A stretch of 64,000 nucleotides of DNA from IMG/VR virus record IMGVR_UViG_3300033121_000823, positions 19,348 to 83,347 of that record. One strand, given 5' to 3'. Position numbers and translations under genes: made by a program. This DNA comes from a virus (lineage: Duplodnaviria; Heunggongvirae; Uroviricota; Caudoviricetes). The notes beneath the pieces were generated by a model. The model was given only the letters and a program-made list of their open reading frames with translations. It searched no databases and was not told the origin of the DNA. Shown here in pieces: positions 5,322 to 62,905 of the stretch (its first letter is position 1; each line of letters begins with the position of its first letter).

Positions 5322-5676
5322 ATACTCGAACTGCCAAATACATCATATAGCGTTTCCATAGAGGAACCTTTAATGTTCGCATAGCATCTAAAAAGATGGC
5401 ATCTGCCAAAATTCTACTAAACTTGCAGCGTTTACGATACATATAATCGTGGATTACTGCGGCCTTGCCGTGTTGTCCATCTGGCTGAAATATAAACCAT
5501 AAAAAGCGTGGAACGCTAGCAAAGTCTGTATAGAACCCTGCTGGCACATCAATATAGATTCCAGAACCCTTTCCACCAACTTCATATGAAAACTTTTCCA
5601 ATACCTTGTAGATTGGACGCCCGCTAACTGTTTTTTCCGTTGCCTCAATACGTAACGGTGACTCAAAAGTACCCAT
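5290..5676 (-). CDS. DUF1353-family protein
   Basis: YTDFASVPRF ... HDYMYR pattern typical of DUF1353. Confidence 0.45.
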   Translation of the reverse strand: MGTFESPLRIEATEKTVSGRPIYKVLEKFSYEVGGKGSGIYIDVPAGFYTDFASVPRFLWFIFQPDGQHGKAAVIHDYMYRKRCKFSRILADAIFLDAMRTLKVPLWKRYMMYLAVRVFGWSSFNKEM

Positions 5677-5961
5677 TGGGAACTCCCCTTATTTGTATCC
5701 TTTTAAGTCCTTCCTATTTTTTAGATAGCCTCATAGCCGCGATTCTGCTTCTAAAATTACATTTATCTACGAATAAAATTCGTGGGCTAGTATTATCTAT
5801 TCCCTGCCATAACCCGTTCTCATAGGACAACCGACATCCTCGAACTGTTTATGTTGCTACTTCTGAGGTGTACGGCATTTAGCCTCCCTCATTAGGTTGT
5901 GTAGTCGCGAACTTAGCTCTAGAACACTCCAGCGTAATTTCGAGCTATCTACTTATTATAT

Positions 5962-6504
5962 TCACCCAAATACAGTTCTTCTAATTGTTTTGGATACTTC
6001 ATCTATCGAGGAAGTTGTCATATTTTCTTTTGGAATTAGGTCAATATAGTGAACTTTTAAATCAAGAAGAAGTTTCTCAATTTTCTCATGAATTTCATCA
6101 GCTTCTTTTTTAGTTTGATTTCTACCAACCGATTTATATTCCCATGTTCTATGTAATAGAAAGTTGTAATTATTATGTTTAATAAAGATATCTTTCACCG
6201 CTTGTCTAAATGATAGAGGCCACTCCTCTTTGGTGTATATTAAAGAGAGGAGAAGAGGAGAATCAGTAATTATAACATCTACTTTGCCAATAAGTCTTTC
6301 TATTTTATGTAATTGTTTACCAAAAATGTAAGGTTGGACCCGTAGGTCTTCATGCCTCTTTGACCAAGTAAGGTCTTTAGCATATTCAGTTACAAGTTCA
6401 CAGTTATATCCTTGTACTTTTAAGTCTGATGTCAGTCTCATAGCGACTGTAGACTTACCACTACAAGGAGCGCCAAACAGGTTAATTACCTTAGAAAGAC
6501 TCAT
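5962..6504 (-). CDS. P-loop nucleoside/nucleotide kinase (AAA_28/NadR-kinase-like)
   Basis: Walker A GAPCSGKST, 180 aa; could be a nicotinamide riboside kinase-like enzyme. Confidence 0.45.
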   Translation of the reverse strand: MSLSKVINLFGAPCSGKSTVAMRLTSDLKVQGYNCELVTEYAKDLTWSKRHEDLRVQPYIFGKQLHKIERLIGKVDVIITDSPLLLSLIYTKEEWPLSFRQAVKDIFIKHNNYNFLLHRTWEYKSVGRNQTKKEADEIHEKIEKLLLDLKVHYIDLIPKENMTTSSIDEVSKTIRRTVFG

Positions 6505-6506
6505 TT

Positions 6507-7181
6507 ATGGAATTCCTCCACGGAATAAAAGATATATTAGTTGGGATATTCGGTCCTACAGCCGTCAGTATACTTTTCGTAAGTATAGGGCTCATAATAC
6601 TTTACAAATTCTTGAAGCCAATACTTATATCTATCTGCTCTACAGCATGTAGTTTGAAAAACCGCTTCGTAAATTTACTATCCATTACTGAACAATTCCA
6701 GAACAATCATGGGTCATCCATGAGAGATGCTATTGACGCAATTCATAGCAATGTAATTGACATTAAGAGGGATATAAAAATAATTGACGGCCGAACTACT
6801 ACTATTATGAGTATTATTGGCGACAACCAAATGTCTGTAGGCATGTATGAAACAGATAAGCATGGTAACTGTATCTTCGTTAACGGACGGTGGACAGAAA
6901 TTACTGGAATGTCGATTGATGATGCCCAATCATATGGATGGGTAAATTCTATACATCCAGACGATAGAGAAAAGGTACAAGAAAATTGGGATTATGCTCT
7001 TAGACACTCATCTAAATTCGATATGATTTATTCTATAATAAACATTAAGACACAGAAAACTACCAAAGTCAGAGGATATGCACTACCAATAAAAAGTACC
7101 GACAATTCAGTTATAAGATTTGTCGGCGCTTTAATAGTTATGTCTTGTACTGTATGTCCAGTACATAAGACTACTGGATAA
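6507..7181 (+). CDS. membrane-anchored PAS-domain protein
   Basis: Two N-terminal TM helices then a PAS-like core (GMYETDKHGNCIFVNGRWTEITG ... WVNSIHPDDREKVQENW); only sizeable plus-strand gene in the first 18 kb. Confidence 0.5.
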   Translation: MEFLHGIKDILVGIFGPTAVSILFVSIGLIILYKFLKPILISICSTACSLKNRFVNLLSITEQFQNNHGSSMRDAIDAIHSNVIDIKRDIKIIDGRTTTIMSIIGDNQMSVGMYETDKHGNCIFVNGRWTEITGMSIDDAQSYGWVNSIHPDDREKVQENWDYALRHSSKFDMIYSIINIKTQKTTKVRGYALPIKSTDNSVIRFVGALIVMSCTVCPVHKTTG

Positions 7182-8385
7182 TTCGCTTGTCCTGACCTTC
7201 CAAAATATATCTTGGGCGACCAGAGAAATCAGTAAACTGAGTTGATGGTGGAATGTCCATATGATTTAGGATTGTACTTAGTAAGTTTACTGGGTAATAT
7301 GGTTGTCCCTTTATTTCAAAGGCATTTCTATCCATTTCACCGATTACACCACCAGTGTATTTTCCACCAGCTAACAGTAAAGGCACGTTTTTTGCCCAAT
7401 GGTCGCGGCCAGCATCCTGGTTGATTGGCGTTCTTCCAAACTCAGTAGAAACGACTACCATAGTAGTCTCTAGCAATCCACGTTCCTTCAACTCGTTGAT
7501 GAGGGTAGATAATGCCTTGTCTACCTCTGGGACTAACCGTTCCATTCCATCTTTTATATTGGAATGCATATCCCAACCGCCGTGTGTAACCGTAATAAAG
7601 CGGGAACCTCGTTCTACTAACCTTCGAGCCAGCAACAAGTTACGTCCAACATCAGTATTGCCGTACGCGAAACGTACATTCTCAGACTCCGCTTCAATCT
7701 TAAAAGCTTCCGATGAAGACCCGAACATAATATCAAAAGCTTGCTTTTTATGTTCATCGACAATCTTCAATCCGTTAATAGAAGAAAAGTTAGTGTCTAA
7801 ACTTTTTAAGACTTGGTGCCGCTGAGTAAAGCGTTCTACCGGAATATTTATGGCGAGATTCTTTTTACCTTCCGAATCTATTGTGAAGGGGTTATTTTGG
7901 GCACCTAGATAGGCCGCGTATAGGCCAGTCATACGCGAATTAGATACATAGTTTGGAATGCCATCGCGGCCGTTCGCCCCATACATCTTATTCACAACAC
8001 TTCCATATGAAGGATGTGTTTGGGCCGCCCCTTGATTTTCATCATTAAAGTTATAACCCGTTGATACCCATACACTTCCGCCTTGATGGCCAGCATTTTG
8101 GTGGCTAAAATTGTGGACTAACGTATAATCGTTGAATTGACTAAGATTATTCCATACGCCGCCCAAATATCTTCCATCTTTTGTTTTAACGTATCCATTT
8201 ACGCTCTTATAGCGGTCAATAGCATCTGGACTAGCATTAAAACTTTCAGCGTGGGACATACCACCAGCTAGAAATAGGAAAATGATACTTTTTTGGTGGT
8301 CTTTAGTGGCCGAGCCGACTAAATTGGGTAATCCAACCGCACTTAGCCCAAGTGCTCCACTTTGTAGGAATGTTCTTCTTAGCAT
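7171..8385 (-). CDS. DUF1501-family protein with twin-arginine signal
   Basis: N-terminal MLRRTFLQSGALGL is a TAT motif; FLAGGMSHAESF and C-terminal TEFGRTP...GRDHW...LAGG match DUF1501 hallmarks. Confidence 0.7.
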   Translation of the reverse strand: MLRRTFLQSGALGLSAVGLPNLVGSATKDHQKSIIFLFLAGGMSHAESFNASPDAIDRYKSVNGYVKTKDGRYLGGVWNNLSQFNDYTLVHNFSHQNAGHQGGSVWVSTGYNFNDENQGAAQTHPSYGSVVNKMYGANGRDGIPNYVSNSRMTGLYAAYLGAQNNPFTIDSEGKKNLAINIPVERFTQRHQVLKSLDTNFSSINGLKIVDEHKKQAFDIMFGSSSEAFKIEAESENVRFAYGNTDVGRNLLLARRLVERGSRFITVTHGGWDMHSNIKDGMERLVPEVDKALSTLINELKERGLLETTMVVVSTEFGRTPINQDAGRDHWAKNVPLLLAGGKYTGGVIGEMDRNAFEIKGQPYYPVNLLSTILNHMDIPPSTQFTDFSGRPRYILEGQDKRIIQ

Positions 8386-18797: not shown

Positions 18798-19382
18798 ATG
18801 TACACCTGCAAATGTGGGACTATATTCACACAAACAAAACATAATCAAATTTATTGTAGCAAAAAATGTAAATATAAATTTAAAAGATTAAAAGTATTAG
18901 CAAATAAAAACAAAAATAATTTTTGTATTGTATGTAATACAAATACATATAATCCAAAATATTGTTCTAAAAAATGTTATTTATCAATAAATAAAATTTC
19001 TAGTCCAAAATTAAAAGATGTTTTTTGTAAAAAGTGTAATACGTTTCTTAGAAACGGTTCTACATTATCCCAAATAAAAATTTGTAATAATTGTAATCCT
19101 AATTATGTTGATTGGTCAAAAATAACAAAAATAGAAATGAGAAATAAATATAAAAATTCATTGCAATATCATTCAAGACTACGTTCTTTAGCAAGAAAGA
19201 AGTGTAAAGATAATACCTGTAAAATATGTGGATATACATTACATATTGAAGTATGCCATATACGTCCTATATCAGATTTTCCAGACACAGCTTTAGTTTC
19301 TGAAATAAATGATATGTCAAATCTTGTAGCTTTATGTCCTAATTGCCATTGGGAATATGACAACGGATTAATAAAACTTTAG
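18798..19382 (+). CDS. HNH homing endonuclease, free-standing in tRNA cluster
   Basis: Multiple CxxC zinc fingers; C-terminal HIEVCHIRPISDF ... LVALCPNCHWEYDNG is an HNH His-Me finger; plus strand among minus-strand tRNAs. Confidence 0.75.
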   Translation: MYTCKCGTIFTQTKHNQIYCSKKCKYKFKRLKVLANKNKNNFCIVCNTNTYNPKYCSKKCYLSINKISSPKLKDVFCKKCNTFLRNGSTLSQIKICNNCNPNYVDWSKITKIEMRNKYKNSLQYHSRLRSLARKKCKDNTCKICGYTLHIEVCHIRPISDFPDTALVSEINDMSNLVALCPNCHWEYDNGLIKL

Positions 19383-19452: not shown

Positions 19453-19455
19453 AAG

Positions 19456-19529
19456 TTTCACTAGTTGGACTCGAACCAACGCTGTCGCGGACTATTAATC
19501 CCGCCGTTCTACCACTGAACTATAGTGAA
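19456..19529 (-). tRNA. tRNA with 8-nt anticodon loop (ATTAATAG), identity unresolved
   Basis: Acceptor TTCACTA/TAGTGAA, classic D-arm GTTC-AGTGGTA-GAAC, T-arm GTTGG-TTCGAGT-CCAAC, anticodon stem GCGGG/CCGC(T). Confidence 0.45.
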
Positions 19530-34393: not shown

Positions 34394-35443
34394 TTAGAAC
34401 TTTGCAACACCTAGTGGTATTGATTGAATATCATAAATATAATCAGTCTTAAACGACCGATAATTGCCTGCTGACTTATCATCTGAAGTCATGTAGAAGG
34501 TAAATACATCACAATCCTCATTATCGTGTAGAACACCGCACCGTGTTTCTTCCTCGCCGTCTTCCTTAACATATGTAAAGGAATAGTGCTTGTTAAGAGT
34601 CATATCATCTGTAGTCAACTCTTCTACGTATTCAGACTCGTCTACTACGGTAATATCCTTAGTATCGTAATCATCGCCAACATTACCACTATAAACTGGA
34701 GCGTTTAACGGAGCCTTATAATCTCCAACTACAGTATATGCACAAGTTCTCAACTTTTGGCAGTTATGGTCATTAGGAACACTAACAACATCCTCAGGAG
34801 CAACCTTACAGATGATTACCTTATCTCCACTGGAATGATACCAGCCGGTAGGCCCACTGTAAGCTAACGCTCCAACGTGGAAACCTTGTGAACAATGTCT
34901 TGTGAAGTCATCATCCACTTCATTACGCGGCATACGCATAGTAGCTCCAGGCTTATTATCATAAGTTCCTGAATACTTATCTAAGTAGTTTCCACGAACT
35001 GACTTATATGCTAGAAAGCATCCATCCTCAGTTAACATTAATCCATTTACTTCCAAGAAGCCCCACAATTCCTTCACACTTCGTGAAGATGGATTTTGTA
35101 GAAGCCGCTCGAAGAACTTTACCAAAGGAGTAAAGTCGAAACCGTTAGCCATCATTGACATGATAGCCTTAGAGACGCTATTACTTACAGGATTTCCGTC
35201 AACATAAACTCCTGTGGAATCTACAGTTACACGGTCTAACGTCCCAATTCTTTGGTTTACTACTTTCGCGACCTCTTTTACGGTGTCTAAATTCTTCAAG
35301 AAAAGGTCTGCATCCTTTTCATTAAAAGCCTTCCGTAGGACCGCATATTGCGGATGGTCCTTAGCAACTGTATATGCTGAACCATCAACAAGAACATTCA
35401 AAGTACCATCACCAATAACCTGACGACCAATCATTCTACTCAT
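34394..35443 (-). CDS. rIIB: rIIB
   Basis: FLAYKSVRGNYLDKYSGTYDNKPGATMRMPRNEVDDDFTRHCSQGFHV aligns with T4 rIIB FYAWKVVRSNYFDCHSNTFDNSPGKVVSMPRNSVNDDDTQTCSRGLHV. Confidence 0.8.
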   Translation of the reverse strand: MSRMIGRQVIGDGTLNVLVDGSAYTVAKDHPQYAVLRKAFNEKDADLFLKNLDTVKEVAKVVNQRIGTLDRVTVDSTGVYVDGNPVSNSVSKAIMSMMANGFDFTPLVKFFERLLQNPSSRSVKELWGFLEVNGLMLTEDGCFLAYKSVRGNYLDKYSGTYDNKPGATMRMPRNEVDDDFTRHCSQGFHVGALAYSGPTGWYHSSGDKVIICKVAPEDVVSVPNDHNCQKLRTCAYTVVGDYKAPLNAPVYSGNVGDDYDTKDITVVDESEYVEELTTDDMTLNKHYSFTYVKEDGEEETRCGVLHDNEDCDVFTFYMTSDDKSAGNYRSFKTDYIYDIQSIPLGVAKF

Positions 35444-35473
35444 AAATTTTCTCCAAATAAAAAAAAACGAAAT

Positions 35474-37447
35474 TTACTTACTATCTATCATACGAACATA
35501 ATTTTTAACGGCAGGCGTCGTATAATTCGACGCACTAACATATTGAAGCATAGGATATAATTTTTCTATCTTATCGTTCAATGTTTTAACTTTAACTTTA
35601 GCATCATCAACCTCTTTAATTTTTTCACTAAAGAAAGATTGATACATGTCATATAGATACTTATAGTCACTATCGTAATCTAACGACTTAATTATATCTA
35701 TTTCATCCTTCGAAAGGTTCTTTGACGGAGTATTAAATAGATTTCTATTTAGTATAGGATATGACGCATCAATTTTGTAAAGATTATTCTTTAATATTGT
35801 ACGAGTCTCATCTTTTAAATAATCATCAATATGAGTCCATCCAGCATTCTTTGCAGAATCTATTAGTTTTGATTTTAGACCAAAAATTGAGTCTAATACT
35901 GCTGAACAATTGTTCAGTTGCTTGATAAGTCGTGACATTGAATACCAATTCATCTTCGCATTTTTAATATCAAAACCGTGTAACTCGCAGTATACACCCT
36001 TTTTAGTAAAATCTATCGTTTCAGATACCCAACTTTTAGTTATATACGAACTTTGTTGATATCGCATTCCTTGCGAAGTTTTTGCTCTAGCTACACCTTT
36101 CTTTCTAGTTGGCTGATAAGTAACAGAACTTATTGGAAGTATAATTGAGTCATCACAACCTAGAGCATTAATGACAGACTGCTTATCCTCAAATAGATAA
36201 GCGGCTTTTCCAGTATTTGCTACATAATTGCGTAGACGGACTACTGACCCCTTCTTCTTAATAGCTGCTAAATCATCATAAAAAATGGTAAATTCTTGAT
36301 TTAGAGATATATATCTATGATTAACAGTAATCTTCGTATTTGAAAAATTCTTATAGCATTTACGACAATCATTAACTGATAAAGTAAATCCTGAGTCAGG
36401 AAATAATTGCTGATTATTATATTGAAAAGCTGAAACATTCAATATTCTTTGCAAAGTATAATCAAGCTTAGAATAATACTCAATGAATGTTAGACGCGAT
36501 TCATATAAGTTTTTACTATTCTTATAGGACTCAGATGCCATATTCTGAATAGAATTCTTAACCTTGTTCAAGGTATTCTCTATGAATGCTATAGTCTTAG
36601 CGTCATAGGATAAGCCCTCGCGAGAAACTTCAATTGATACATCTCCAGTTTCTACAAAAATATCTATTCCGGCAGAAGTAATAGCATTATTTATGCTATG
36701 ATTTACTACTGGATATGCAACTGATGCCATAATAATGCGGCAGCCAGTACCATCGCCCTTTCTAATACCCCAATTATCTTTCTTTAAAGAATATTCGGGA
36801 TTTACAATATTCAATTTATTTCCAACCATCTTTGGCTTAACAGTAAAATACTTATATAAGTCTGTTGCCCTATTAGCAAATGCTGATTCATCACCACGAA
36901 CAGTTGGAAAGCTAATCTTTACACCACTTCTTTCCGGCGAATGAACTTCGGAAAGTAGAGATAATGACGGAACTCCATCCTTGTTTAGGAAGGCTCGCCA
37001 TTCATACTTAATACCATTATACCAACTTGTAATATTGAATGTTCGTGTATGATATGAGAATGGTGTTTTCGACCCAAGTCCAAGACATCCATTAAATAAG
37101 TTAGAATTATCCTTACTAGACATTCCGTATGTGCTGAATACTTTTTGAATCGTTTCTTTGGACATACCAGTTCCAAAGTCGCGAATGTAAAATTCTGGCA
37201 TACTCCAAGTGGGGATATGTACCTCAAAAGCTTCAGCAGCGTTTCCATTTGCTATATGACTATCAAGAGCATTTGTACTTAGTTCACGGATGCAGGCTCG
37301 AATCTTATCAGAATATAATCCATCCGACAAAATATGGAACATTTTCGGCCCCATACTTATGGAGAATGTACTAGTTTCAAATGTATCGTCGTCTAAATTT
37401 ACGACTCTATTACCTTCATTCAATAACTTCATTAGAATTTTCCTCAA
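35474..37447 (-). CDS. rIIA: rIIA
   Basis: [38 protein letters not shown] aligns with T4 rIIA [47 protein letters not shown] also shared; 657 aa. Confidence 0.85.
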   Translation of the reverse strand: [657 protein letters not shown]

Positions 37448-39916: not shown

Positions 39917-39951
39917 TAGATTTCACCTTAGTATAGTCGTATCCACTTCTT

Positions 39952-40269
39952 TCATAGTTTCACCTTCTTCAAAATAATGTCGTCGGCGTCACCAAAATTC
40001 TTATTTGGGCCAGCAGAGATAGCAGTAATCGTTGTGTCAGTACTGGTTAGCTTTACTAAGGTTCCATACGAGTCGATTTCTAAAATCGAATCTTTTAATG
40101 CATTTCTAAGAATTACTTTGGTCGCCTCAACTTTTTCCACATCAACTACCTTAATCTTTTCATTAGCTGCCTTTCTAGCAGCCATAACGGCTGGAAATAG
40201 TTGGGCACAAAGTATTCCAACTATTGCTATAAGCACTAATAATTCAACTAAAGTGAATCCACGCTTCAT
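39952..40269 (-). CDS. prepilin-type (type IV pilin/pseudopilin-like) protein
   Basis: MKRGFTLVELLVLIAIVGILCAQLFPAVMAARKAA is a class III signal with N-methylation motif; resembles Planctomycete DUF1559 N-termini. Confidence 0.6.
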   Translation of the reverse strand: MKRGFTLVELLVLIAIVGILCAQLFPAVMAARKAANEKIKVVDVEKVEATKVILRNALKDSILEIDSYGTLVKLTSTDTTITAISAGPNKNFGDADDIILKKVKL

Positions 40270-40874
40270 TGGTTATATTCCTTACTAATAATTTTGTAGA
40301 TTACTCGTTCACCCTTTGGGCTTTTACGTTCATAGAGTGGCCGTACAACTACCCCTTCCATCACATTTGTCGCATTTTGTACACGGCTCTTTCCGGCCGC
40401 TAACAAAGTTAATTCTTGGAACGAGTGTGGAAACTTTCCTATGAATGGAGGACGTAATACATTATACGTATTGAACATCTTTTCCCTCTCATCAATATCT
40501 AGGAATCTTTCTTCATTACGGTCATATATGTCGAAAGCATAGAAAGCTCGCTTACCACCTTCAAGACCATACTTAAATCCCTTAACATTTCCAGTTGCTT
40601 CGCCATACAGCACGAAGTGAGTATTCTCGCGGAGAAAATTCTTACATGCTTCACTTAAAGTGTGGAAGCATGTCCAATGCTCACTTTTAAAAGATTCTTC
40701 TACCCAGTGATTTCTAGTTCCTACTTTAAATGTAGTATTTTTACTATCATAGTAAACTCTACAATTAGAGTTATGTACAATAATTCCATTTGCTATAAAA
40801 TTATTGTTATATTTTACTTCAATATCACAAGCTAAATATACTTCTTTTAAATAGTCTTTTTTATGTAATCTCAT
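40266..40874 (-). CDS. C-intein (35 aa) fused to C-terminal half of Rnl2/Rnl5-type RNA ligase
   Basis: MRLHKKDYLKEVYLACDIEVKYNNNFIANGIIVHN|S resembles split DnaE IntC (…VYDIGVERDHNFALKNGFIASN). Downstream EGVVVRP and KIISKEY resemble ligase motifs IV and V. Confidence 0.6.
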   Translation of the reverse strand: MRLHKKDYLKEVYLACDIEVKYNNNFIANGIIVHNSNCRVYYDSKNTTFKVGTRNHWVEESFKSEHWTCFHTLSEACKNFLRENTHFVLYGEATGNVKGFKYGLEGGKRAFYAFDIYDRNEERFLDIDEREKMFNTYNVLRPPFIGKFPHSFQELTLLAAGKSRVQNATNVMEGVVVRPLYERKSPKGERVIYKIISKEYNQ

Positions 40875-41601
40875 ATTTTTCTCTATTAGTTTTTAAACAA
40901 CTATCTGTAAATTTCACATCTTTGATATTAGATAAATCTAAATTATTTGACAATTTACTAATCCAAAATTTAAACTCTGACTCCTGCATATTCCCTTTCA
41001 TATAATTAATTCTTTTATGTACAATGACTATATTACTTTTAATATAGCCAATTTCTGGATTAATCCTATCAATTGATGCAGTCTGTTTTGTTACTTTATT
41101 ACTATCTGGATAGAAATTAATATTTATTCCAGAATAATAACATTTAAAATTTTGTTTTTCAAATTGACTCCAAATATCTTCCATAGATATATCTATAAAT
41201 ATAAGTCTTTCTTCGCAAGATTGTAATATTCTTCTATAATATGAATATGATATGTCTTTATATCCATTTTTCCTACATTTAGATATCTTATCACATCCAC
41301 AACTTTTTGTTAAGTTTCTTTTTAATGAACTTATATTTATAATTTTTTTATTTCCACAATCACACGTACATAAAAATTTAGCCTTATTATGTCTATCTAA
41401 TCCATGATATGACTCTACAATTAGTTTATTAAACTTTTTACCTATAACAGACATATCTACACCAGAATCCTTTTTTCTTCTTATACCATATTTTTTCATT
41501 TTTTTATATATAGTATGAGTAGTTGTGTTTAATATTCTAGCAGTGGCAGTTATATTGTTATAACTTAATAATTCTTGTAATTTTTCTTTTGTTATATGCA
41601 T
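40861..41601 (-). CDS. Mob-like HNH homing endonuclease between intein halves
   Basis: N-terminal HTH, CTCDCG...CGC zinc finger, ASIDRINPEIGYIKSNIVIVHKRINYMKGN variant HNH motif; paralogs at 50483..51094 and 61077..61787. Confidence 0.55.
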   Translation of the reverse strand: MHITKEKLQELLSYNNITATARILNTTTHTIYKKMKKYGIRRKKDSGVDMSVIGKKFNKLIVESYHGLDRHNKAKFLCTCDCGNKKIINISSLKRNLTKSCGCDKISKCRKNGYKDISYSYYRRILQSCEERLIFIDISMEDIWSQFEKQNFKCYYSGININFYPDSNKVTKQTASIDRINPEIGYIKSNIVIVHKRINYMKGNMQESEFKFWISKLSNNLDLSNIKDVKFTDSCLKTNREKYEIT

Positions 41602-41643
41602 AATTTGGTCTCCTTACCAAAATATACATAGTAAAGAAAAGAA

Positions 41644-42429
41644 TCACAAGTGTACTACATCATCTTTTTCTGTTAATTCTCCAGCGGAGACATAACCTCT
41701 ATTTTTTGTAAGAATAGGATGGTCAACTGTACATATCAGTTCTTTACCATTATCAAAATGTAATTTTAACCAAGACTTTTCTAACCTTTCAAACTTTGTT
41801 GCTAATACTACATCTTTAGTGTATGTATCATTTTCTATATCATAACTTATAATATTTTGCCCGGATTTAATATCCTTAATTTTAATATCTCCATCTGGAG
41901 TTGATACTAATGTATCCTCATGAACGCAGCCATGAATCTTCTCTTCAACCCACACTAACTCATTATCTTCAAAGTACTTATGGAGTTTTACGCCACTATC
42001 AATATCATACTTTGATAGTGATTCTCCGCTCGTAAAATTACCGCCGCTTGAAAGGTGTAGTTCTGGCTCCCAGTGTTTTACGCCAAGAACTTGGGATAAA
42101 TCGTCGCCCTCCTTAACTGTAAGTCCATCCGGAACTTTTACTAGGCAGCCGTCACTTAAATAACCGCGTAGTTTAACAGCCTTAACGCGTACTTCTTGCA
42201 CGCCGTCATTCTTGTTTAAGAATGTAAATGGTTCCTTCCAACAATCTACGACCGATTGTGGTTGAATCCAAACGGCTAACTCGCCATCCTGCCAACTATC
42301 CGTATTTACGACTACTTGAACAGTCCCCTCAAATAGACGAACTATAGATAACTTTTCGGCGTCTGGATGTTTTTCCTTCTTGACGACTACGACTGGCGCC
42401 TGATGTGTAAACTTTGTCATTCTTTCCAT
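41644..42429 (-). CDS. N-terminal half of Rnl2/Rnl5-type RNA ligase fused to N-intein (about 94 aa)
   Basis: About 165-aa N-extein ends in nucleotidyltransferase motif I EEKIHG. Intein block A CVHEDTLVSTPDG and block B TVDHPIL follow; the ORF ends in TGA without a C-terminal splicing block. Confidence 0.6.
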   Translation of the reverse strand: MERMTKFTHQAPVVVVKKEKHPDAEKLSIVRLFEGTVQVVVNTDSWQDGELAVWIQPQSVVDCWKEPFTFLNKNDGVQEVRVKAVKLRGYLSDGCLVKVPDGLTVKEGDDLSQVLGVKHWEPELHLSSGGNFTSGESLSKYDIDSGVKLHKYFEDNELVWVEEKIHGCVHEDTLVSTPDGDIKIKDIKSGQNIISYDIENDTYTKDVVLATKFERLEKSWLKLHFDNGKELICTVDHPILTKNRGYVSAGELTEKDDVVHL

Positions 42430-42656
42430 CCTTCTTCAATTACTATTGCGTATAACGATGCTGGATTAGTTAATGCTAGCTCAGTAGTTATACTTATCCA
42501 AGTACCATCATCTAATTGTAGATGAAGAACATTACATGCTATTGCATCAACTGATATTATTTTTTTTCCTATTAATTTTTCAGGGTCAATCTTCATTTTA
42601 CATTCCCCACGGTTATATGATATGAATCGAATGGATACCGATACTTTGGAAGACAT
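42417..42656 (-). CDS. hypothetical protein
   Basis: 79 aa ORF. Confidence 0.35.
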   Translation of the reverse strand: MSSKVSVSIRFISYNRGECKMKIDPEKLIGKKIISVDAIACNVLHLQLDDGTWISITTELALTNPASLYAIVIEEGWKE

Positions 42657-42967
42657 AACTTACTTCTAATGTCGGCTATTCCATCAGAATAAGCCTTTAG
42701 GAAGAAGTATGGTTTCTGTTCATAGATGTATGAACTATAGGAAAATCCTATTTTCCTTCCATTCATATACTTCCAATTCATTCGTCCTGGCTCTTCCTTA
42801 CCAAGACGAGTAATCGTAATATGTGCTCTGTATGCTTGTCTCTGTACATACCATGCCTTTGGAATTAGGGAATAATAATAATCTACAATTCCTTGGTCTA
42901 TTTCCAACGTAACATAGTGATTATGATACTTTACGCGACCTACGGATGAAAACACGTTTAACTCCAA
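42593..42967 (-). CDS. 2H phosphoesterase (LigT/CPDase-like or Acb1-like)
   Basis: Two H-x-T-x motifs, AHITITR and YHITVGN; 124 aa. Confidence 0.6.
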   Translation of the reverse strand: MELNVFSSVGRVKYHNHYVTLEIDQGIVDYYYSLIPKAWYVQRQAYRAHITITRLGKEEPGRMNWKYMNGRKIGFSYSSYIYEQKPYFFLKAYSDGIADIRSKLCLPKYRYPFDSYHITVGNVK

Positions 42968-44032
42968 TCATAATACTGTTGTTTTATCCTTATAAGTTGT
43001 TCCATAACTCTTCCACTTGATTGGTGATGAAATTAATGACTCTGAAAAACCTTTCGGCTTCTTATCGCACCAAGTTAAGAATATTCCGTCAGGTTTAACA
43101 ATTCTTTCAGCATTTTGAAAGATTCTTAAATTGTCACCAAATGTTCCATACTTGATTGGACCTTGATTTTTGTTGAATTTATTATGGTCGTCACCTAAAT
43201 TAATTCCAATTTCGGATTCGTTGAACGGTCCATCACCATGCCTTGAAAAGAATGTACGAATTACTCCAACAATTTCGGCGGTAATCCCTCTTAGTTTACA
43301 AAAATCTAGTGCATATCGAGGAGTTACACTGCTCCAAGTAGTGTACGGAATCATTCCATAAACTTCATCTAATCCAAAACCTTGAGTTCCCTCAAAAATA
43401 TAACACTTAAAGTGTTCTTCATATGGAGCTTCAAACATTTCAAGCGTTTCACCACACCATGACCACGGATTAAAGCTTATTAGCTTTTCAAGTATTTCAT
43501 AAGTACCAGAATAATTATAAAAAGAATCTATATATCTCTCTTTCATGAGATAAAGCTTATCTAGCTTATCCTGTACAGAGTCTCCATAAAAGATTGCGTC
43601 ATTGCCATACTTTAGGAAATATTCCTTAGTCTTTCCAACTCCAACTCCACAACTTAAATATCCATCATGGAAATCCATATATTTTTGGAGTGGAGTAGTT
43701 ACTAAACATTTAGGATGTATCCTCATTACATCTCTAAAATTTACAAAATTCTTCAACGCTTCATATTCACGACGCATTGCCAATGGTTCTACAATAGAAT
43801 TCCTATCATGCAATGTTTTCACCCCATGAAATGTTCCACTTCCAAATTGTGAGAAGATATGACTATGACCACTTGGTAAAACTACTCTATGTCCAGCCTG
43901 ATGGCCACCACAAAATCTGACATTTACTACGTCAGATGGAAAGTGCGTCTTAACGGCGTTAGCCGTAAAATAATCTACTGCTGTACCCTTTCCCTCATCA
44001 CCGAATCCCATACCAACTACAATTTTATTCAT
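42968..44032 (-). CDS. adenylosuccinate synthetase family protein (PurA-like, possibly PurZ)
   Basis: GFGDEGKGTAVDY (P-loop GDEGKGK), CGGHQAGHRVV (GGHNAGH), FEGTQGFGLD (FEGAQG); IMP-site motif GTTGRGIGP diverged to CGVGVGKT. Confidence 0.7.
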   Translation of the reverse strand: MNKIVVGMGFGDEGKGTAVDYFTANAVKTHFPSDVVNVRFCGGHQAGHRVVLPSGHSHIFSQFGSGTFHGVKTLHDRNSIVEPLAMRREYEALKNFVNFRDVMRIHPKCLVTTPLQKYMDFHDGYLSCGVGVGKTKEYFLKYGNDAIFYGDSVQDKLDKLYLMKERYIDSFYNYSGTYEILEKLISFNPWSWCGETLEMFEAPYEEHFKCYIFEGTQGFGLDEVYGMIPYTTWSSVTPRYALDFCKLRGITAEIVGVIRTFFSRHGDGPFNESEIGINLGDDHNKFNKNQGPIKYGTFGDNLRIFQNAERIVKPDGIFLTWCDKKPKGFSESLISSPIKWKSYGTTYKDKTTVL

Positions 44033-44056
44033 GGTTATGCCTTTAGATAGATATTG

Positions 44057-44461
44057 TCATACATTTTTTTTAGTAATATCAAAATGTATGCCTTTCATAT
44101 ACTTATTAAGCTGTTTTTCTTGAAAGAAAAAAGTATTTCTTAGTCGTTCTTTAATAGAACTTTCTTCATCAAGAAGAACATAATAGTCGTCTATTTTACT
44201 ACCATTTTTTATAAATGGAATTACGATTGAAAAAATTTGTAAATTGTTGGTAAGATAATATTCTTTTAGCTCATTTGCATACATTTTGTATTCAAAAGAT
44301 GGTACATCTATAGTAAAAACTTTTAATGAGCTATTCAATGAATATGGAATATATACGCAAACTCTAGAATAAGAACCTCTTCCAAAGCGAAATCTTCCAC
44401 TATTCCAAATTTCTAGACCAAGTACTTCTCTTAAAAGCTTCCTATTCGTTGGAAATGACAT
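44057..44461 (-). CDS. hypothetical protein
   Basis: 134 aa ORF. Confidence 0.4.
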   Translation of the reverse strand: MSFPTNRKLLREVLGLEIWNSGRFRFGRGSYSRVCVYIPYSLNSSLKVFTIDVPSFEYKMYANELKEYYLTNNLQIFSIVIPFIKNGSKIDDYYVLLDEESSIKERLRNTFFFQEKQLNKYMKGIHFDITKKNV

Positions 44462-45405
44462 TAACCAAGCTCCAATTTAGAGACCGACATCTTATTTGTT
44501 GATGGAGTCTTTACCTTTACTTCACTTAAAGCCTTACTAAGGCTAGCTGTATGATGAGAGGATAAAGACATTTTCTTTGCCGTATCCTTCACATGATATC
44601 CTTCATTAGCTCCAATAATACTGGCGATTGCCTCACATACCAAGTCTGGATTTTCAAGCTTAATTACACGCTCTCCAAAAAGCTTCTTCCAAAAATCATT
44701 AACATCCCTATCATCATAGTAAGACGATAGGTTTGGAATAATAAAGTAGACTTCATACATTTCATGTAATTCATTAACTAAATTTTCCAATTTCATATTT
44801 TCAGCTAAACCGCCAATATGGTCTACAACATACTTAGATGATACATCGCGAGCCTTCTCATCTCCAATAATGAAAAGATATCCTTTCTTTCCACGCTTTT
44901 CCCAAGAATCTAATACTGTTCTACGAGCCATAAAGTACATAGCTAGTTCGTAAGATTCAAACTTTTGCCCGCCACCACCGCCTTCCAAAAATATCTTTCC
45001 CAAATCTTCATCAATACGAACATCGGATTCAAACTGCCCAATCTGGATTGGAACAGTATCACATGTAGCATCTCCAATGCCACCAGTAAGAATTTGCGGG
45101 CCTTCTACATACTTTTGTTCTAAAAGAATAGAAAGAAGTTTTGGAAGCTTTGTTTGCAATGTTCTAGGAACACTACCCATACTGCCGGTAACATCAAATA
45201 ATACTGCGACTGGAGTAGTAATAGGATGCTCGTCGCTGTCTCTCGATTCACGAATTTTCCCCTTAATATTTAGGTCATTATGTAGTGCTGATGCCCTACC
45301 AGCCCTTACATCAACATCATGGGTAAAGCTAGTACTATAGCCACTACTCTTAACTGCTCGCTGTCTTGCGTCATATGCATCGTCTGTCCAATTTCCACCA
45401 CCCAT
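44461..45405 (-). CDS. vWA-domain protein
   Basis: MIDAS-like LFDVTGSMGS; likely true start ATG at 45405 after RBS AGGAGA (track start at 45429 is TTG). Confidence 0.55.
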   Translation of the reverse strand: MGGGNWTDDAYDARQRAVKSSGYSTSFTHDVDVRAGRASALHNDLNIKGKIRESRDSDEHPITTPVAVLFDVTGSMGSVPRTLQTKLPKLLSILLEQKYVEGPQILTGGIGDATCDTVPIQIGQFESDVRIDEDLGKIFLEGGGGGQKFESYELAMYFMARRTVLDSWEKRGKKGYLFIIGDEKARDVSSKYVVDHIGGLAENMKLENLVNELHEMYEVYFIIPNLSSYYDDRDVNDFWKKLFGERVIKLENPDLVCEAIASIIGANEGYHVKDTAKKMSLSSHHTASLSKALSEVKVKTPSTNKMSVSKLELG

Positions 45406-45406
45406 A

Positions 45407-46336
45407 TTAAATCTCCTTATGTAGGTCAACCGTAGAAGTCACGATTGCACCGCTTTCTCCCATATTGAATTGTCTAAAAGTTCTCTTACCAATCTTCTTT
45501 GCTAATACTTCGTTAAACTTATCATGAAGTTCCCACGCGTCATCAGCAACAATAGTTGTCATATCAAGCACGAACTGAATATCTTCCTTCCTTATAAGTT
45601 TTCTTGCTATTTGTTTTACAAGACAAACATCAAAAATTTTGGAAGACATAGTCTTCTTTTCATACTCATCGGAATAATACGCTCTTCCGATGTATTTTTT
45701 CGTCAAATATCTTGGCCGTTCTCCTGACGGAAAAATATTAGACCATCCCAATAAAGTTCCGCCGTGCGTCTCACAATTAATTAAGAAGTGTTCCGGCGTT
45801 AAGTTCGCGGCGACCAAATTCTTACTATGTAAGTAGCCAAGTATTGTCATAAGACGATTAAGCATCCAAGCGGCGTCCCTAATATCTATTCCTCCCGTGT
45901 ATCGTTTTAATACGTCGGCCAGACTACATGTTTTTTCCCTATTAAATACTTGGACCGTTAAGTCAGCTCCATAATTTGTATTAATAGAGAAAGAAGTAAT
46001 GGGTACTGGTAACAGTTTGTCAAAAAATATGTCACCGCGAACCTTATTAAGTGTATCCAGGCCGTCCTTTAAGAATTTATTGGCCGCAGGATGTTTGGCC
46101 ACCTTTACAACTACATCCAAGTTTCCATACACTGTAGTTAGGTCGCCGTCTGTCATCTTATATACTTTGTACGGCCCAATTACAGTTGGATTTTTCCAAC
46201 TTTCATACAGTTCTTGTGTCGACTTGAATAGTTCGGCTGAACCACCATGGTCAGGATGATGCTTTATCTTTAAGTCACGAAAGATTTTATCGGCGTCACC
46301 TTTTCCAAAGACATCACACGGTAATATATACGTCAT
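45407..46336 (-). CDS. J-domain plus protein-kinase-like fusion protein
   Basis: IKHHPDHGG is a J-domain HPD motif; HSKNLVAANLTPEHFLIN is a kinase catalytic-loop-like segment; C-terminal 13 aa encoded by the 40-bp repeat. Confidence 0.4.
   Translation of the reverse strand: MTYILPCDVFGKGDADKIFRDLKIKHHPDHGGSAELFKSTQELYESWKNPTVIGPYKVYKMTDGDLTTVYGNLDVVVKVAKHPAANKFLKDGLDTLNKVRGDIFFDKLLPVPITSFSINTNYGADLTVQVFNREKTCSLADVLKRYTGGIDIRDAAWMLNRLMTILGYLHSKNLVAANLTPEHFLINCETHGGTLLGWSNIFPSGERPRYLTKKYIGRAYYSDEYEKKTMSSKIFDVCLVKQIARKLIRKEDIQFVLDMTTIVADDAWELHDKFNEVLAKKIGKRTFRQFNMGESGAIVTSTVDLHKEI
45421..45460. repeat. 40-bp perfect direct repeat, copy 2 (3' end of J-domain/kinase gene, just upstream of vWA gene RBS)
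   Basis: Identical to 23769..23808; encodes GESGAIVTSTVDL on the minus strand in both contexts. Confidence 0.8.
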
Positions 46337-48154: not shown

Positions 48155-48340
48155 TTAATCGTTTAGATACTCCTTGAAAAACTTTGGAACGTAATGATAT
48201 AATAAGAGGAACCATACAATTAAGGTTAAAATTCCACCAGTTAGTGCAAAATCCATGGAAGCTGCCATAAAACTGGTAGATACTTCAATAATTAGTGCAG
48301 TCAATAAGACTGTGCCTACTAGGCGAATTAAATGCTTCAT
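48155..48340 (-). CDS. small membrane protein
   Basis: 61 aa with two TM helices. Confidence 0.4.
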   Translation of the reverse strand: MKHLIRLVGTVLLTALIIEVSTSFMAASMDFALTGGILTLIVWFLLLYHYVPKFFKEYLND

Positions 48341-49431
48341 AATACACGAGTTACTTTCTCGGGCGATGCCCGCATTAAGGTTATTGGATTTATGTCAGTC
48401 TCTCCATTGTCGTACTTCGTCTTAGCCTCGAATAGGAAGTTATTGAAAGGACAATCCTTTATTGCCAACGCAAACTTCTTTCGCGACTTTTCATCCTTAA
48501 AACAGAACCAATGATTAGACATTGTTTCCATTATTTTTTGAAGTTTTTCCTCTAAGGCTCGTGCCTGCTTCTCAACATATGGAAAATAACATATTACTTC
48601 ATCAAGTTCTCCATTCAATATATATTCGATTAAACGTGATTCCGACTGTATATTCCCATTGTTTGCCATCCGGTGGAGCATTAAGTAGGTGGAATTTTTC
48701 ATCTTGAACCGCAAATTATTGCGGTCGCGAAGAACAAACCCCTCAAAAGTTTTATCCGTTCGCTCTAGATTTGCTATGAACGCCTCAACATCCATGATAT
48801 CGCCGAAAGAATATTCTTCAGGCATCTCCACACCTATTTCTTTTCCTATTACTTTTGTGATTGGATGAAGTAATTCAACTTCTCCATCAAATACCGTTAA
48901 TAGGAAAAGAGATGGTGTATTGTATAGGCGAACAACTTGATTATATCGCGAACACAATTCAAAGACATATGTCTTCGTTTTTTCCAATCGTTGGAAGAAG
49001 TTTTCCGGGGCGGCTAACATAAATAGTTGTCGCCACGTTATAAAATCATTTACATTCCTGCCGCCAAAACTTCCACGCGTTTGTACGTGCCATTCTCCAT
49101 TCCAATAGTAAACTACGATATACGAGCCATCTTCCTTGAAAGTTGCTACGCTTTCCTCAAACTGAAATTTCTTCATTTCATTAGGATATTCACCCCAATT
49201 AAAGAAACGGTAAAAACCGCGAGCACATAATGACCAATCTTTGGAATCTAGAGTAAGTGCCCGACATTCACGAACTATCGGCTCAAACTTCATCTTAGAG
49301 GAAGCTATTTGGCCATAGTTGAGGATTACTCGACTATCCGTTGGATGCTTTATAGCATTTATTCCATAATAATGGTTTAAAAGAGATAAGTCTCCATTAT
49401 TCTTTATTAGAAACTTTTGAACGTCGAGCAT
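48337..49431 (-). CDS. RNA ligase 1 (Rnl1-like)
   Basis: FKEDGSYIVVYYWNGEWHVQTRGS aligns with T4 Rnl1 [24 protein letters not shown] around Lys99. Confidence 0.65.
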   Translation of the reverse strand: MLDVQKFLIKNNGDLSLLNHYYGINAIKHPTDSRVILNYGQIASSKMKFEPIVRECRALTLDSKDWSLCARGFYRFFNWGEYPNEMKKFQFEESVATFKEDGSYIVVYYWNGEWHVQTRGSFGGRNVNDFITWRQLFMLAAPENFFQRLEKTKTYVFELCSRYNQVVRLYNTPSLFLLTVFDGEVELLHPITKVIGKEIGVEMPEEYSFGDIMDVEAFIANLERTDKTFEGFVLRDRNNLRFKMKNSTYLMLHRMANNGNIQSESRLIEYILNGELDEVICYFPYVEKQARALEEKLQKIMETMSNHWFCFKDEKSRKKFALAIKDCPFNNFLFEAKTKYDNGETDINPITLMRASPEKVTRVL

Positions 49432-52585: not shown

Positions 52586-53158
52586 TCAGCAACTGCATGT
52601 GAAGAACGAGCCGCCACCGTCCTTATTCTCGTACTTTGTTCCCTTAATTCCATCTAACTCATTATAGTGAGTCCAAAATTCGTCGGGAACAGATTCACCA
52701 TCAAAGCGTGGGCCGTGATTTACGTAATCCCCATATTCAACATATCGCTTTCCATACTCGACAACCTCATCAAAATCCATTCCATAACATGCTGCCCATT
52801 TGGTAATCCAGCCAATATGGCTATCCTCATATCTTTTTTCTAGTTTTTTAGAATATGAATCATGGTCGAAAGAGTCATGTTCCCATGCATGGCGTAATGA
52901 AGAGATACTACCGGGATACAAACAAAGGAGGCACGTATCGTCATACGTTTTATCCTTCTCAAATGGATTAACTACTGCTACGTGAGGTCTAAATGAACAT
53001 GAGACATAGTATGTTCCGTCAATTTTCTTAATGCCAACATGGTCACCGGGCCATACAGGTTCACGAACCTTAGCAACAATGACCGCAATATGTAGAGCAT
53101 CTCTTACGCCAACATCCTCATCAGTCAACTTTTTCAAAAATAGATTATCCTGCGACAT
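52586..53158 (-). CDS. hypothetical protein
   Basis: 190 aa ORF. Confidence 0.4.
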   Translation of the reverse strand: MSQDNLFLKKLTDEDVGVRDALHIAVIVAKVREPVWPGDHVGIKKIDGTYYVSCSFRPHVAVVNPFEKDKTYDDTCLLCLYPGSISSLRHAWEHDSFDHDSYSKKLEKRYEDSHIGWITKWAACYGMDFDEVVEYGKRYVEYGDYVNHGPRFDGESVPDEFWTHYNELDGIKGTKYENKDGGGSFFTCSC

Positions 53159-54629
53159 TACTGCGAACCTCCTTTAAAGTATACTCTTTGAGTAATTTTC
53201 CATTAAGAAAAACTGGTTGCATAATATTCCACATCTTAAAAGATGCATTATATTCTTCCTTCGATAAATCTTCAACAAGCTCAAGTTTGGAAGTACGTTT
53301 TACTCCAAGTAAACCTCTCGCAGACTTCTTAACTCCATCATCAGTCTTTGGGTCTTTAAATACGTTGATAGACTTCCCATCTACTTCTCCATAAGTAGTC
53401 TTAACTGCAAATCCAAACGTATCTCTAGTAGTATACCTATAAGTGAATGAGCCAATTCCAAGAACAGGGATATTACTTGCGAAACCCTTACGTTTTAAGC
53501 CCTCTAAAATATCTCTTTGACGTTCCAAAGTAATTGAATCGCCATAAATAATTCCAATGTGTGGGTCAAGACTCTTGTAACCCTTACGAGTAAAGGAACC
53601 GCCGAAAATCTTATGCATCATTTCAACAGAACCATAATACTCTGGAGTTCCAAATGTAGCATCTTTATCGCCACAAATAATTTTAGTTGGATTACCGGAA
53701 TCGGGCCTGATTGTAACCTTACCACTCCTATTCATAATTTCATTCTTCAACTTTGGAAGAATTTCTGTAATGACCTTCCAATAGTCATAAGAATCACATA
53801 CAATGGAAACTATTCCATCTGGATATACTTCAGTGATTAACCGCTTAAACTGTTCGAGTTCTCCAGTCAATAAATCTTTTCCACTCGCGAGAATTGCTAT
53901 AGTTTGTGTTGAATGCTCTGTAGCAACAACAGATGTTCCAATTAGTCCTGTAGCACCATAATAGTGCTTAAGAAATTTTACGGCAGGAACTGTATCTGTA
54001 CCAGTAAATGATAATAAGTGGCCAGCTCCACTTAAACATGCACTTTCTAAGCCAGACATCCCTCTATAAGAGAAATCATGCCCTTGCCATTGCACAAAAT
54101 CTCTATCGCCAACCGTTTCATCGGCATATTCATTAAATACCCGTCTATATTCAGCAGCAATAGTGGCGGAAGTACATGGTTCCCAAAGTACATTCGACAT
54201 ACTTGTTTCTAAGAAGTTTGTTAACCAGAAAAAGTCTGGCAATGTATTATGAATAGTATACATTGGTACACGTAGAGGAACTTTAGTGCCCTCTGGTACT
54301 GCACAAATCTTAATTGGAAGATATCCTAATGTATGTAAATCACTTACATGCTTAGATGAAATGTCGCGACCAACAAAATCACGAATATTTTCTTCATGCT
54401 CTTCGAGAACAGAGCTTTTCGGTCGATTAAAAAAGTTATCATTCCACTGACGAATCAAATAATCCTTAATGTAATATTGTAATCCAAAAAATACAACCTC
54501 ATTAATATTTGGAATACGAGACCCACGCGGTGTAAAATTTGAATAAATTCGTTCAGTGTCTTGAGGATACTGATTTCTGTGGTCTAACTTATATGAATCA
54601 GTATATGTCAATGGCATCATTTCAATCAT
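53145..54629 (-). CDS. NAMPT-family enzyme (NadV or Namat)
   Basis: 494 aa; N-terminal LTYTDSYKLDHRNQYP and overall length fit the NAMPT family. Confidence 0.7.
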   Translation of the reverse strand: MIEMMPLTYTDSYKLDHRNQYPQDTERIYSNFTPRGSRIPNINEVVFFGLQYYIKDYLIRQWNDNFFNRPKSSVLEEHEENIRDFVGRDISSKHVSDLHTLGYLPIKICAVPEGTKVPLRVPMYTIHNTLPDFFWLTNFLETSMSNVLWEPCTSATIAAEYRRVFNEYADETVGDRDFVQWQGHDFSYRGMSGLESACLSGAGHLLSFTGTDTVPAVKFLKHYYGATGLIGTSVVATEHSTQTIAILASGKDLLTGELEQFKRLITEVYPDGIVSIVCDSYDYWKVITEILPKLKNEIMNRSGKVTIRPDSGNPTKIICGDKDATFGTPEYYGSVEMMHKIFGGSFTRKGYKSLDPHIGIIYGDSITLERQRDILEGLKRKGFASNIPVLGIGSFTYRYTTRDTFGFAVKTTYGEVDGKSINVFKDPKTDDGVKKSARGLLGVKRTSKLELVEDLSKEEYNASFKMWNIMQPVFLNGKLLKEYTLKEVRSNVAG

Positions 54630-62789: not shown

Positions 62790-62833
62790 GTTTTTTCTCT
62801 ATTAACTTTTGATAAATCTGAATAATCGCGAAG

Positions 62834-62905
62834 TGTCTCTACTAGGACTCGAACCTAGATTTTGGGATTTAGAGTCCCTCGTATTTCCAATTATACGATA
62901 GAGAC
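62834..62905 (-). tRNA. tRNA with anticodon CUA (putative amber suppressor, or sense-UAG decoder)
   Basis: Perfect acceptor GTCTCTA/TAGAGAC, D GTAT-AATTGGAA-ATAC, anticodon stem AGGGA/TCCCA with loop CTCTAAA (C32 U33 C34 U35 A36 A37 A38), T-arm CTAGG-TTCGAGT-CCTAG. Confidence 0.5.

Follow-up and report, generated by a model that had tools for sequence, protein, structure and literature searches.

A phage RNA ligase gene probably fractured by a split intein that has a free-standing nuclease gene at its split point

Anatomy of the ligase locus

In a 64,000-nucleotide (nt) stretch of Caudoviricetes DNA, hereafter the window (positions 19,348 to 83,347 of IMG/VR record IMGVR_UViG_3300033121_000823), the gene of an RNA ligase lies in two pieces on either side of a third gene. 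The locus is probably a fractured gene, in which the ligase of a phage has been broken by a class-1 split intein and a free-standing homing-endonuclease gene sits at the split point. A first-pass annotation had described it in similar terms, as split-intein-like ligase halves around a Mob-like HNH endonuclease gene, and we found the three open reading frames (ORFs) on the minus strand at exactly the coordinates and in the order that it gave. The features, with the N- and C-terminal intein halves called IntN and IntC, are as follows (aa, amino acids).

41929..42429 (-), N-extein, ligase residues 1-167: OB domain and nucleotidyltransferase part up to motif I (K164-I-H-G167)
41644..41928 (-), IntN, 94 aa: C1 VHEDTLV (block A), CTVDHPIL (block B, TxxH), TGA stop at 41646..41644
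41595..41630 (-), predicted RNA hairpin in the spacer between IntN and the nuclease gene: AAGGAG in the loop, nuclease AUG in the 3' arm
40861..41601 (-), free-standing nuclease gene, 246 aa: helix-turn-helix (HTH), Cys-rich module, His-Me domain
40770..40874 (-), IntC, 35 aa: MRLHKK...NNNFIANGIIVHN, blocks F and G
40266..40769 (-), C-extein, ligase residues 168-334: opens with the +1 Ser, TGA stop included
40674..41991 (-), mobile cassette (limits from population data), 1,318 nt: 100% identity between the window and contigs L001 and L004

The first ORF (42429..41644, 261 aa) reads as had been described, with motif I KIHG, intein blocks A and B and a TGA end: its ligase part ends EEKIHG and is followed by CVHEDTLV...DG...CTVDHPIL...VVHL and the stop. 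The third ORF (40874..40266, 202 aa) runs MRLHKK...NFIANGIIVHN and then SNCRVYY... for 167 ligase residues; its 35-aa IntC-like start ending VHN/S (the slash marks the junction) and the C-terminal ligase part behind it were likewise recovered, with matches to TIGR01443 and PF09414 respectively. Between the ligase halves the middle ORF (41601..40861, 246 aa) is complete, with an AAGGAG Shine-Dalgarno sequence and ATG of its own after a 42-nt spacer. It is in frame with the IntN ORF, yet two in-frame stops (TGA and TAA) separate them; relative to the IntC ORF its frame is shifted by +1, in agreement with the annotation, and the IntC ORF starts within the nuclease gene, its ATG 14 nt from that gene's 3' end. 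GC content is 0.20-0.30 for the intein halves and the nuclease gene (IntN 0.30, IntC 0.20) versus 0.38-0.43 for the exteins (N-extein 0.43).

The ligase and its point of interruption

Both ligase halves were recognised by curated models above their cut-offs, the N-half by the PF21189 OB domain (E 6.5e-9) and the C-half by PF09414 RNA_ligase (E 7.8e-22). Positions 13-180 of the TIGR02306 profile match the first ORF and positions 169-338 the third; the two halves thus cover successive parts of one ligase cut at a single point. The halves score 60.5 and 43.8 bits, short of the TIGR02306 equivalog cut-off of 151 bits, and as the phage ligase forms a distant branch of this family 'Rnl5-like' is the fitting label. 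All family-invariant columns are present (K164, G167, F246-D247, E305-G306 and K326).

When the exteins were joined, they aligned to the structure of the Naegleria RNA ligase NgrRnl without a gap over the junction (E 2.7e-14, query residues 40-312), with KIHG/SN facing KLDGSS of NgrRnl; the alignment to a ligase structure that had been proposed as a check on the junction is therefore contiguous. The joined exteins also align to eight intein-less natural homologues and to one with an unrelated insertion elsewhere, the window having EEKIHG-S at the junction where the intein-less proteins have EEKIHG-E/T/A/S, again free of gaps. By its sequence the protein, which has an N-terminal OB domain, belongs to the ATP-dependent RNA ligases of the DRB0094/NgrRnl (Rnl5-like) type; ligase activity is predicted for it, and the intein interrupts it three residues after the catalytic (adenylated) lysine, at K-I-H-G/S. 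It shares with NgrRnl (5cot) and DraRnl (Deinococcus radiodurans), of Rnl5 family TIGR02306, the N-terminal OB domain followed by a nucleotidyltransferase domain, motif I and the other conserved columns; it differs from them in being only distantly related and in carrying an intein, which the characterised Rnl5 members do not.

The split intein and its relatives

The split-intein identity of the two halves was upheld by curated hidden Markov models (HMMs), TIGR01445 (intein_Nterm) matching IntN with 38.4 bits (cut-off 24.5) and TIGR01443 (intein_Cterm) matching IntC with 28.1 bits (cut-off 15.6); an IntC-specific HMM built without the window sequence also recovered IntC (E 2.8e-10). The fused halves have sequence homology to the solved inteins 8ubs, 6qaz and 7cfv. 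The nearest are NrdJ-1 (8ubs; E 2.7e-10 by phmmer, in a match spanning both halves) and gp41-1 (6qaz; E 2.3e-6), which are split inteins from the original 2009 fractured-gene loci (PMC2677866), and the Spl DnaX mini-intein gave 5.2e-6. The class-1 residues are all readable, namely C1 (C168 of the ORF), T-V-D-H in block B, the terminal H-N and the +1 Ser. IntN is acidic, with a net charge of -6; IntC has a basic N-terminus.

Related inteins were found in three further RNA ligase genes, and all three keep the class-1 catalytic residues. In a T4-like contig (L011, 242-2471) and a 318-kb phage contig (L088, 3333-5611) an Rnl2-like ligase is fractured at KLHG/C by a split intein 42-44% identical to that of the window (44% in L011), and a Vsr/DUF559-like endonuclease gene lies between the halves; in L011 this gene encodes 288 aa and there is an overlap of 47 nt. 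The third (L079, 3953-6255 of IMGVR_UViG_3300042991_000510) is a 509-aa Rnl5-like ligase with a contiguous mini-intein of 141 aa at the identical KIHG/C...VHN/S site. The split points of the window, L011 and L088 share one alignment column, which corresponds to an internal Met of this mini-intein. As side observations, a GIY-YIG gene lies just downstream of the L011 locus and adjoins gp23, and a free-standing canonical HNH gene (5506..6255, ...GWHVDHVIP...) lies directly downstream of the L079 ligase, where intein and adjoining endonuclease gene may be travelling together.

A scan of IMG/VR with the intein alignment returned 80 loci, of which about 50 are fractured genes (ribonucleotide reductase, helicase and other enzymes). 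The endonucleases tested in these roughly 50 related loci are mostly PD-(D/E)xK/Vsr-like, with two matching GIY-YIG seeds, and the nuclease family of the window is absent from them. Three crude regular-expression hits for it, in L107, L113 and L154, were read: L154 belongs by PHROG to PD-(D/E)xK-type endonuclease/resolvase families, L107 has no PHROG match and L113 is near-identical to L107. In five IMG/VR loci (L094, L146, L147, L155 and L166) related IntN and IntC ORFs stand 16-99 nt apart with the endonuclease gene absent between them, and these look like fractured genes after endonuclease loss.

Empty allele and evidence for homing

An uninterrupted, intein-less ligase of 331 aa (P0001) is 92% identical to the conceptually spliced ligase over 99% of the query. 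It is encoded in a syntenic contig, L007, at the same genomic position, with a PurA-like gene and two small ORFs on one side and a pilin-like gene on the other. The +1 residue is Ser in the cassette allele and Glu in this empty allele, so the cassette supplies its own nucleophile.

The limits of the cassette were given by a block of 1,318 nt, from 41991 to 40674, that is 100% identical between the window, L001 and L004. It takes in both intein halves, the spacer and the nuclease gene, with 63 nt of extein on the 5' side and 96 nt of AT-rich, recoded extein on the 3' side. The flanks of this block are diverged: identity of the window to L001/L004 is 93.7% and 85.6% in the N-extein, 96.8% in the remaining C-extein and 94-98% in PurA. 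By comparison with the empty L007, the 96-nt tract after the insertion (GC 0.29) has 32 mismatches and a 6-nt indel, and beyond it identity jumps abruptly to 99.8%. This is the pattern expected of recent nuclease-driven homing with co-conversion from an AT-richer donor, and the co-converted flanks recode the probable target site in addition to providing the +1 Ser.

In a wider comparison with L007 (window 39941..40679 and 41933..45419) identity is about 85% upstream of the cassette and 97-99.8% for about 1.2 kb downstream, a shift which places the cassette at a boundary of recent genetic exchange; nuclease genes at exchange boundaries have been reported for other phages (PMC10448857). These phages are strongly mosaic. 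A metagenome scan for diverged copies of the nuclease gave only one further copy, itself identical, so that no ratio of non-synonymous to synonymous substitutions (dN/dS) was possible, and no match to the region was found at nucleotide level among 50,697 phage records.

The nuclease between the halves

From N- to C-terminus the 246-aa protein has an HTH, a CxCDCG...SCGC module and a His-Me (HNH-fold) domain, which carries the motif ID178R..GY186IKSN190..IN200YMK. Its PHROG matches include families named HNH endonuclease, endonuclease and endonuclease VII, with E values of 3.5e-23 to 5.5e-15, and no similarity to GIY-YIG or Vsr-like seeds was seen. While a PDB sequence search with the single protein gave nothing significant, the family profile and a fold search were informative. 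Thirty relatives share the FNKLxV...CxCDCGN...TKSCGC module and the C-terminal SIDRI(D/N)..GY...N motif, with the HTH in some but not all, and Y186 and N190 are invariant across them. The nuclease's closest relatives are free-standing genes in phage contigs; no intein halves were found nearby in a set of 80 IMG/VR loci that encode relatives of the nuclease (positive control included).

The family profile matches I-HmuI (E 0.007), the DR of the family standing opposite DH of I-HmuI. It can also be set against the restriction enzyme PacI, where VD92R-x6-GY100-x3-N104...CN113RIK stands opposite ID178R-x6-GY186-x3-N190...IN200YMK; the spacing is D178-x7-Y186-x3-N190-x9-N200 in the nuclease and D92-x7-Y100-x3-N104-x8-N113 in PacI. 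In PacI an omega-loop tyrosine replaces the catalytic histidine, and Asp and Asn hold the metal (PMC5714182; PMC4081073). The nuclease has the beta-beta-alpha-metal (His-Me/HNH) fold, and its motifs predict catalysis at a PacI-type active site with tyrosine for the catalytic histidine and Asp/Asn as metal ligands. Further likeness to PacI (PDB 3ldy/3m7k; His-Me group 20, PMC5714182) lies in the Cys-rich zinc-type motifs. Unlike PacI, a homodimeric restriction enzyme of 142 aa whose site has 8 bp, the nuclease has 246 aa with an added HTH and CxCDCG module, and as part of a mobile cassette it is expected to have a long, asymmetric homing-type site.

Of the annotation's label 'Mob-like HNH', then, the HNH-superfamily fold stood and the Mob family did not. 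The best BLASTP match to T4 MobE had an E value of 12, and as MobE is a canonical H-N-H protein without detectable similarity to the nuclease, 'Mob-like' holds only as a functional analogy. Separately, a 290-aa protein (P0059) has an FNKLT...CKCDCGN...TSCGC module joined to a LAGLIDADG domain rather than His-Me, which suggests that the CKCDCGN...SCGC module is a portable DNA-binding module that endonuclease classes share.

Expression signals and proposed mechanism

The hairpin over the nuclease start has a minimum free energy of -14.0 kcal/mol (46 nt), and its 106-nt context has z = -2.8 versus shuffles. No terminator-like sites were found between the three genes. The hairpin lacks a canonical T4 late promoter (TATAAATA), and consensus-like sites are many in this AT-rich region.

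We propose that the three genes would be co-transcribed and the ligase halves made as separate translation products, after which the acidic 94-aa IntN and the 35-aa IntC would associate and trans-splice G167 to S168, giving a ligase of 334 aa. The middle protein would act as a site-specific His-Me nuclease that cuts intein-less ligase alleles of co-infecting relatives, its translation probably throttled by the hairpin over its start codon. Repair of the cut allele from a cassette-bearing genome would then copy into it the cassette together with short flanking extein tracts.

Alternative explanations

An assembly or sequencing artefact, in which a contiguous intein with an in-frame endonuclease domain only appears split, would fit the frame shared by the nuclease and IntN ORFs. 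It is contradicted by the TGA and TAA that lie in frame between these ORFs, by the Shine-Dalgarno sequence and ATG of the nuclease gene, and by the out-of-frame 3' junction with its 14-nt overlap. Further, the exact 246-aa nuclease was present on 15 contigs (the longest of 184 kb) from independent runs and projects, with identical sequence across independent samples and assemblers, and every one of those contigs that was read has the same three-gene layout. The IntN stop, for which the first-pass annotation had allowed a sequencing error, is real, and the artefact explanation is practically refuted. Stop-codon recoding was also considered and rejected, as the suppressor tRNA in the window reads TAG and the stops are TGA and TAA (the TAA following the TGA in frame). 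A different arrangement was seen in one Logan contig (L248, from SRR23702466; 2,987 nt), where at 1609-2718, directly after the ligase N-half, nuclease residues 1-103 (100% identical) are fused to a YcaO-domain protein; a chimeric assembly could account for this, or else a genuine recombination at the CxCDCG...SCGC module.

Several observations weigh against the fractured-gene reading as a whole. A single-sequence AlphaFold (AF2) model of fused IntN and IntC had a pLDDT of 34, too low to be informative. The IntC start has only a weak ribosome-binding site, and ligase yield could be low if translation of the C-half is coupled to the hairpin-repressed nuclease gene. All copies of the cassette are identical, so no selection on the intein is measurable within this lineage. 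In the nuclease the position of the catalytic His is taken by Arg179 (SIDR, aligned to DH of I-HmuI and DR of PacI), a Pfam/NCBIfam search returned no HNH model and a weak HTH match alone, and the family profile matches PacI with E 0.38, which is weak on sequence alone.

The lack of a selection signal in identical cassettes would suit halves that are never spliced, either because intein fragments hold together a non-covalent two-chain ligase or because the gene is inactivated and dispensable. A split gene that functions without splicing has a precedent in Aeh1 NrdA/mobE, as far as it is described in PMC2677866, and the phage has a second RNA ligase gene (Rnl1-type, PF09511) at 48337..49431. 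We nevertheless consider this improbable: C1, T-x-x-H, H-N and the +1 Ser are all present and kept in relatives 29-44% identical, L011 and L088 are split at the same point, the +1 Ser occurs only in the cassette allele in place of Glu in the empty allele, and with the split inside the active site unspliced intein fragments would probably obstruct catalysis. Somewhat less improbable, though still unlikely, is that the nuclease-like protein has lost homing endonuclease activity, or never had it, and serves as a DNA-binding relic or regulator, the cassette spreading by homologous recombination of co-infecting phages or with the help of another nuclease. The DR in place of DH and the failure of HNH models to match speak for this, as do the existence of His-Me groups that lack the histidine and are inactive DNA binders (PMC5714182), the PHROG relatives of the nuclease named 'anti-sigma factor' and 'sigma70 decoy', and the mosaicism of these phages, which exists in any case. 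Against it, the D178...Y186...N190...N200 spacing mirrors that of active PacI, Tyr186 and Asn190 are invariant in the relatives, the ORF is intact on all 15 contigs, and nuclease-driven homing yields such sharp, short co-conversion tracts on either side of an insert that is 100% identical. The fractured gene with a spliced ligase and a homing nuclease remains the reading that we prefer.

Comparison with known systems

Fractured genes were described by Dassa et al. 2009 (NAR 37:2560, PMC2677866) in eight enzyme types, for example at the NrdJ-1, gp41-1 and IMPDH-1 loci. Their endonucleases were GIY-YIG or Vsr-like, and gene fracture with an HNH endonuclease was predicted there without an example. 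A hairpin was found upstream of 15 of 16 endonuclease genes in such loci, and the overlap of the endonuclease 3' end with the IntC ORF, by 6-69 bp, is a hallmark (PMC2677866). The locus in the window is like these in that the break falls at an active-site motif of a conserved nucleic-acid enzyme gene, in a phage context; in the sizes of IntN (about 90-105 aa there) and IntC (about 35-40 aa there) and the same-strand endonuclease gene between the halves; in the endonuclease/IntC overlap, the hairpin over the endonuclease start and the absence of a terminator between genes; and in having an intein that is a sequence relative of NrdJ-1 and gp41-1. It is unlike them in that the host, an ATP-dependent RNA ligase, lies outside their eight host types, and in that the endonuclease is PacI-type His-Me (HNH-superfamily) and neither GIY-YIG nor Vsr-like, although the latter types describe the known members and do not define the arrangement.

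A second comparison is with Aeromonas phage Aeh1, where the free-standing HNH gene mobE interrupts nrdA (Friedrich et al. 2007; Gibb & Edgell 2007, cited after PMC2677866). To the extent of that account, the two loci share a free-standing HNH-superfamily gene within an enzyme gene of a T4-like phage, co-orientation of the three genes, a hairpin over the endonuclease translation start and overlap of the endonuclease gene with the downstream half; by the same account Aeh1 has no intein, and its NrdA is a non-covalent assembly of two chains.

A 2025 survey of actinophage inteins gave only Vsr-like endonucleases for split inteins, and the only RNA ligase intein hosts it named were of the RtcB type. 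Our literature search, of incomplete coverage, returned no intein in an ATP-dependent RNA ligase and no HNH-type fractured gene, which given that coverage is weak evidence of novelty: the fractured-gene layout was already known, and the host enzyme and the nuclease type appear new for it as far as the searched literature shows.

Phage context

Directly downstream of the ligase, and overlapping its stop, is the gene of a small protein whose N-terminus bears a prepilin-type methylation motif (PF07963; 39952..40269), and a DUF1501 protein is encoded at 7171..8385. The PF07963 prepilin-type and DUF1501 families are typical of Planctomycetota and related bacteria, and the two proteins may hint at the host. 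Other genes encode adenylosuccinate synthetase (42968..44032), nicotinamide phosphoribosyltransferase (53145..54629) and, at 34394..37447, an rIIB homologue adjoining a 657-aa protein with a GHKL-ATPase domain that may be rIIA.

With the Rnl1-type enzyme at 48337..49431 besides the fractured Rnl5-like one, the phage has two RNA ligases of different families, plus a large tRNA set of 17 genes in the window. One of these (62833..62905) has a CTA anticodon (amber suppressor; tRNA-Pyl by ARAGORN) and another (19455..19529) an apparent four-base anticodon (taat), which may indicate stop-codon reassignment or frameshift suppression in the phage.

Significance

The compact (94 + 35 aa), NrdJ-1-like split intein with its Ser +1 junction may serve protein engineering, and the middle protein is a candidate for a site-specific nuclease whose active site would, unusually, use tyrosine. 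With this locus the fractured-gene arrangement gains a new host enzyme, an ATP-dependent RNA ligase, and a nuclease class whose occurrence in it was predicted in 2009 and is undocumented in the literature searched. Its metagenomic relatives provide an unusually clean natural record of homing, which includes an empty site, an identical cassette in diverged genomes, co-conversion tracts of 63 nt and 96 nt, a mini-intein that is contiguous and occupies the same site, and sister split inteins that are split at the same point but enclose a different nuclease.

A bolder proposal, which we put forward tentatively and consider somewhat less probable than its negation, is that the nuclease is the first homing endonuclease of the PacI-type, tyrosine-dependent His-Me branch, a branch so far known from one restriction enzyme and uncharacterised viral proteins; that it replaced a Vsr-like endonuclease at the same split point; and that the intein lineage hops between unrelated RNA ligase families via their shared motif I. 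If this is true, the locus would form, together with its empty allele and the relative with the mini-intein, a natural series of endonuclease genes entering, swapping within and mobilising split inteins.

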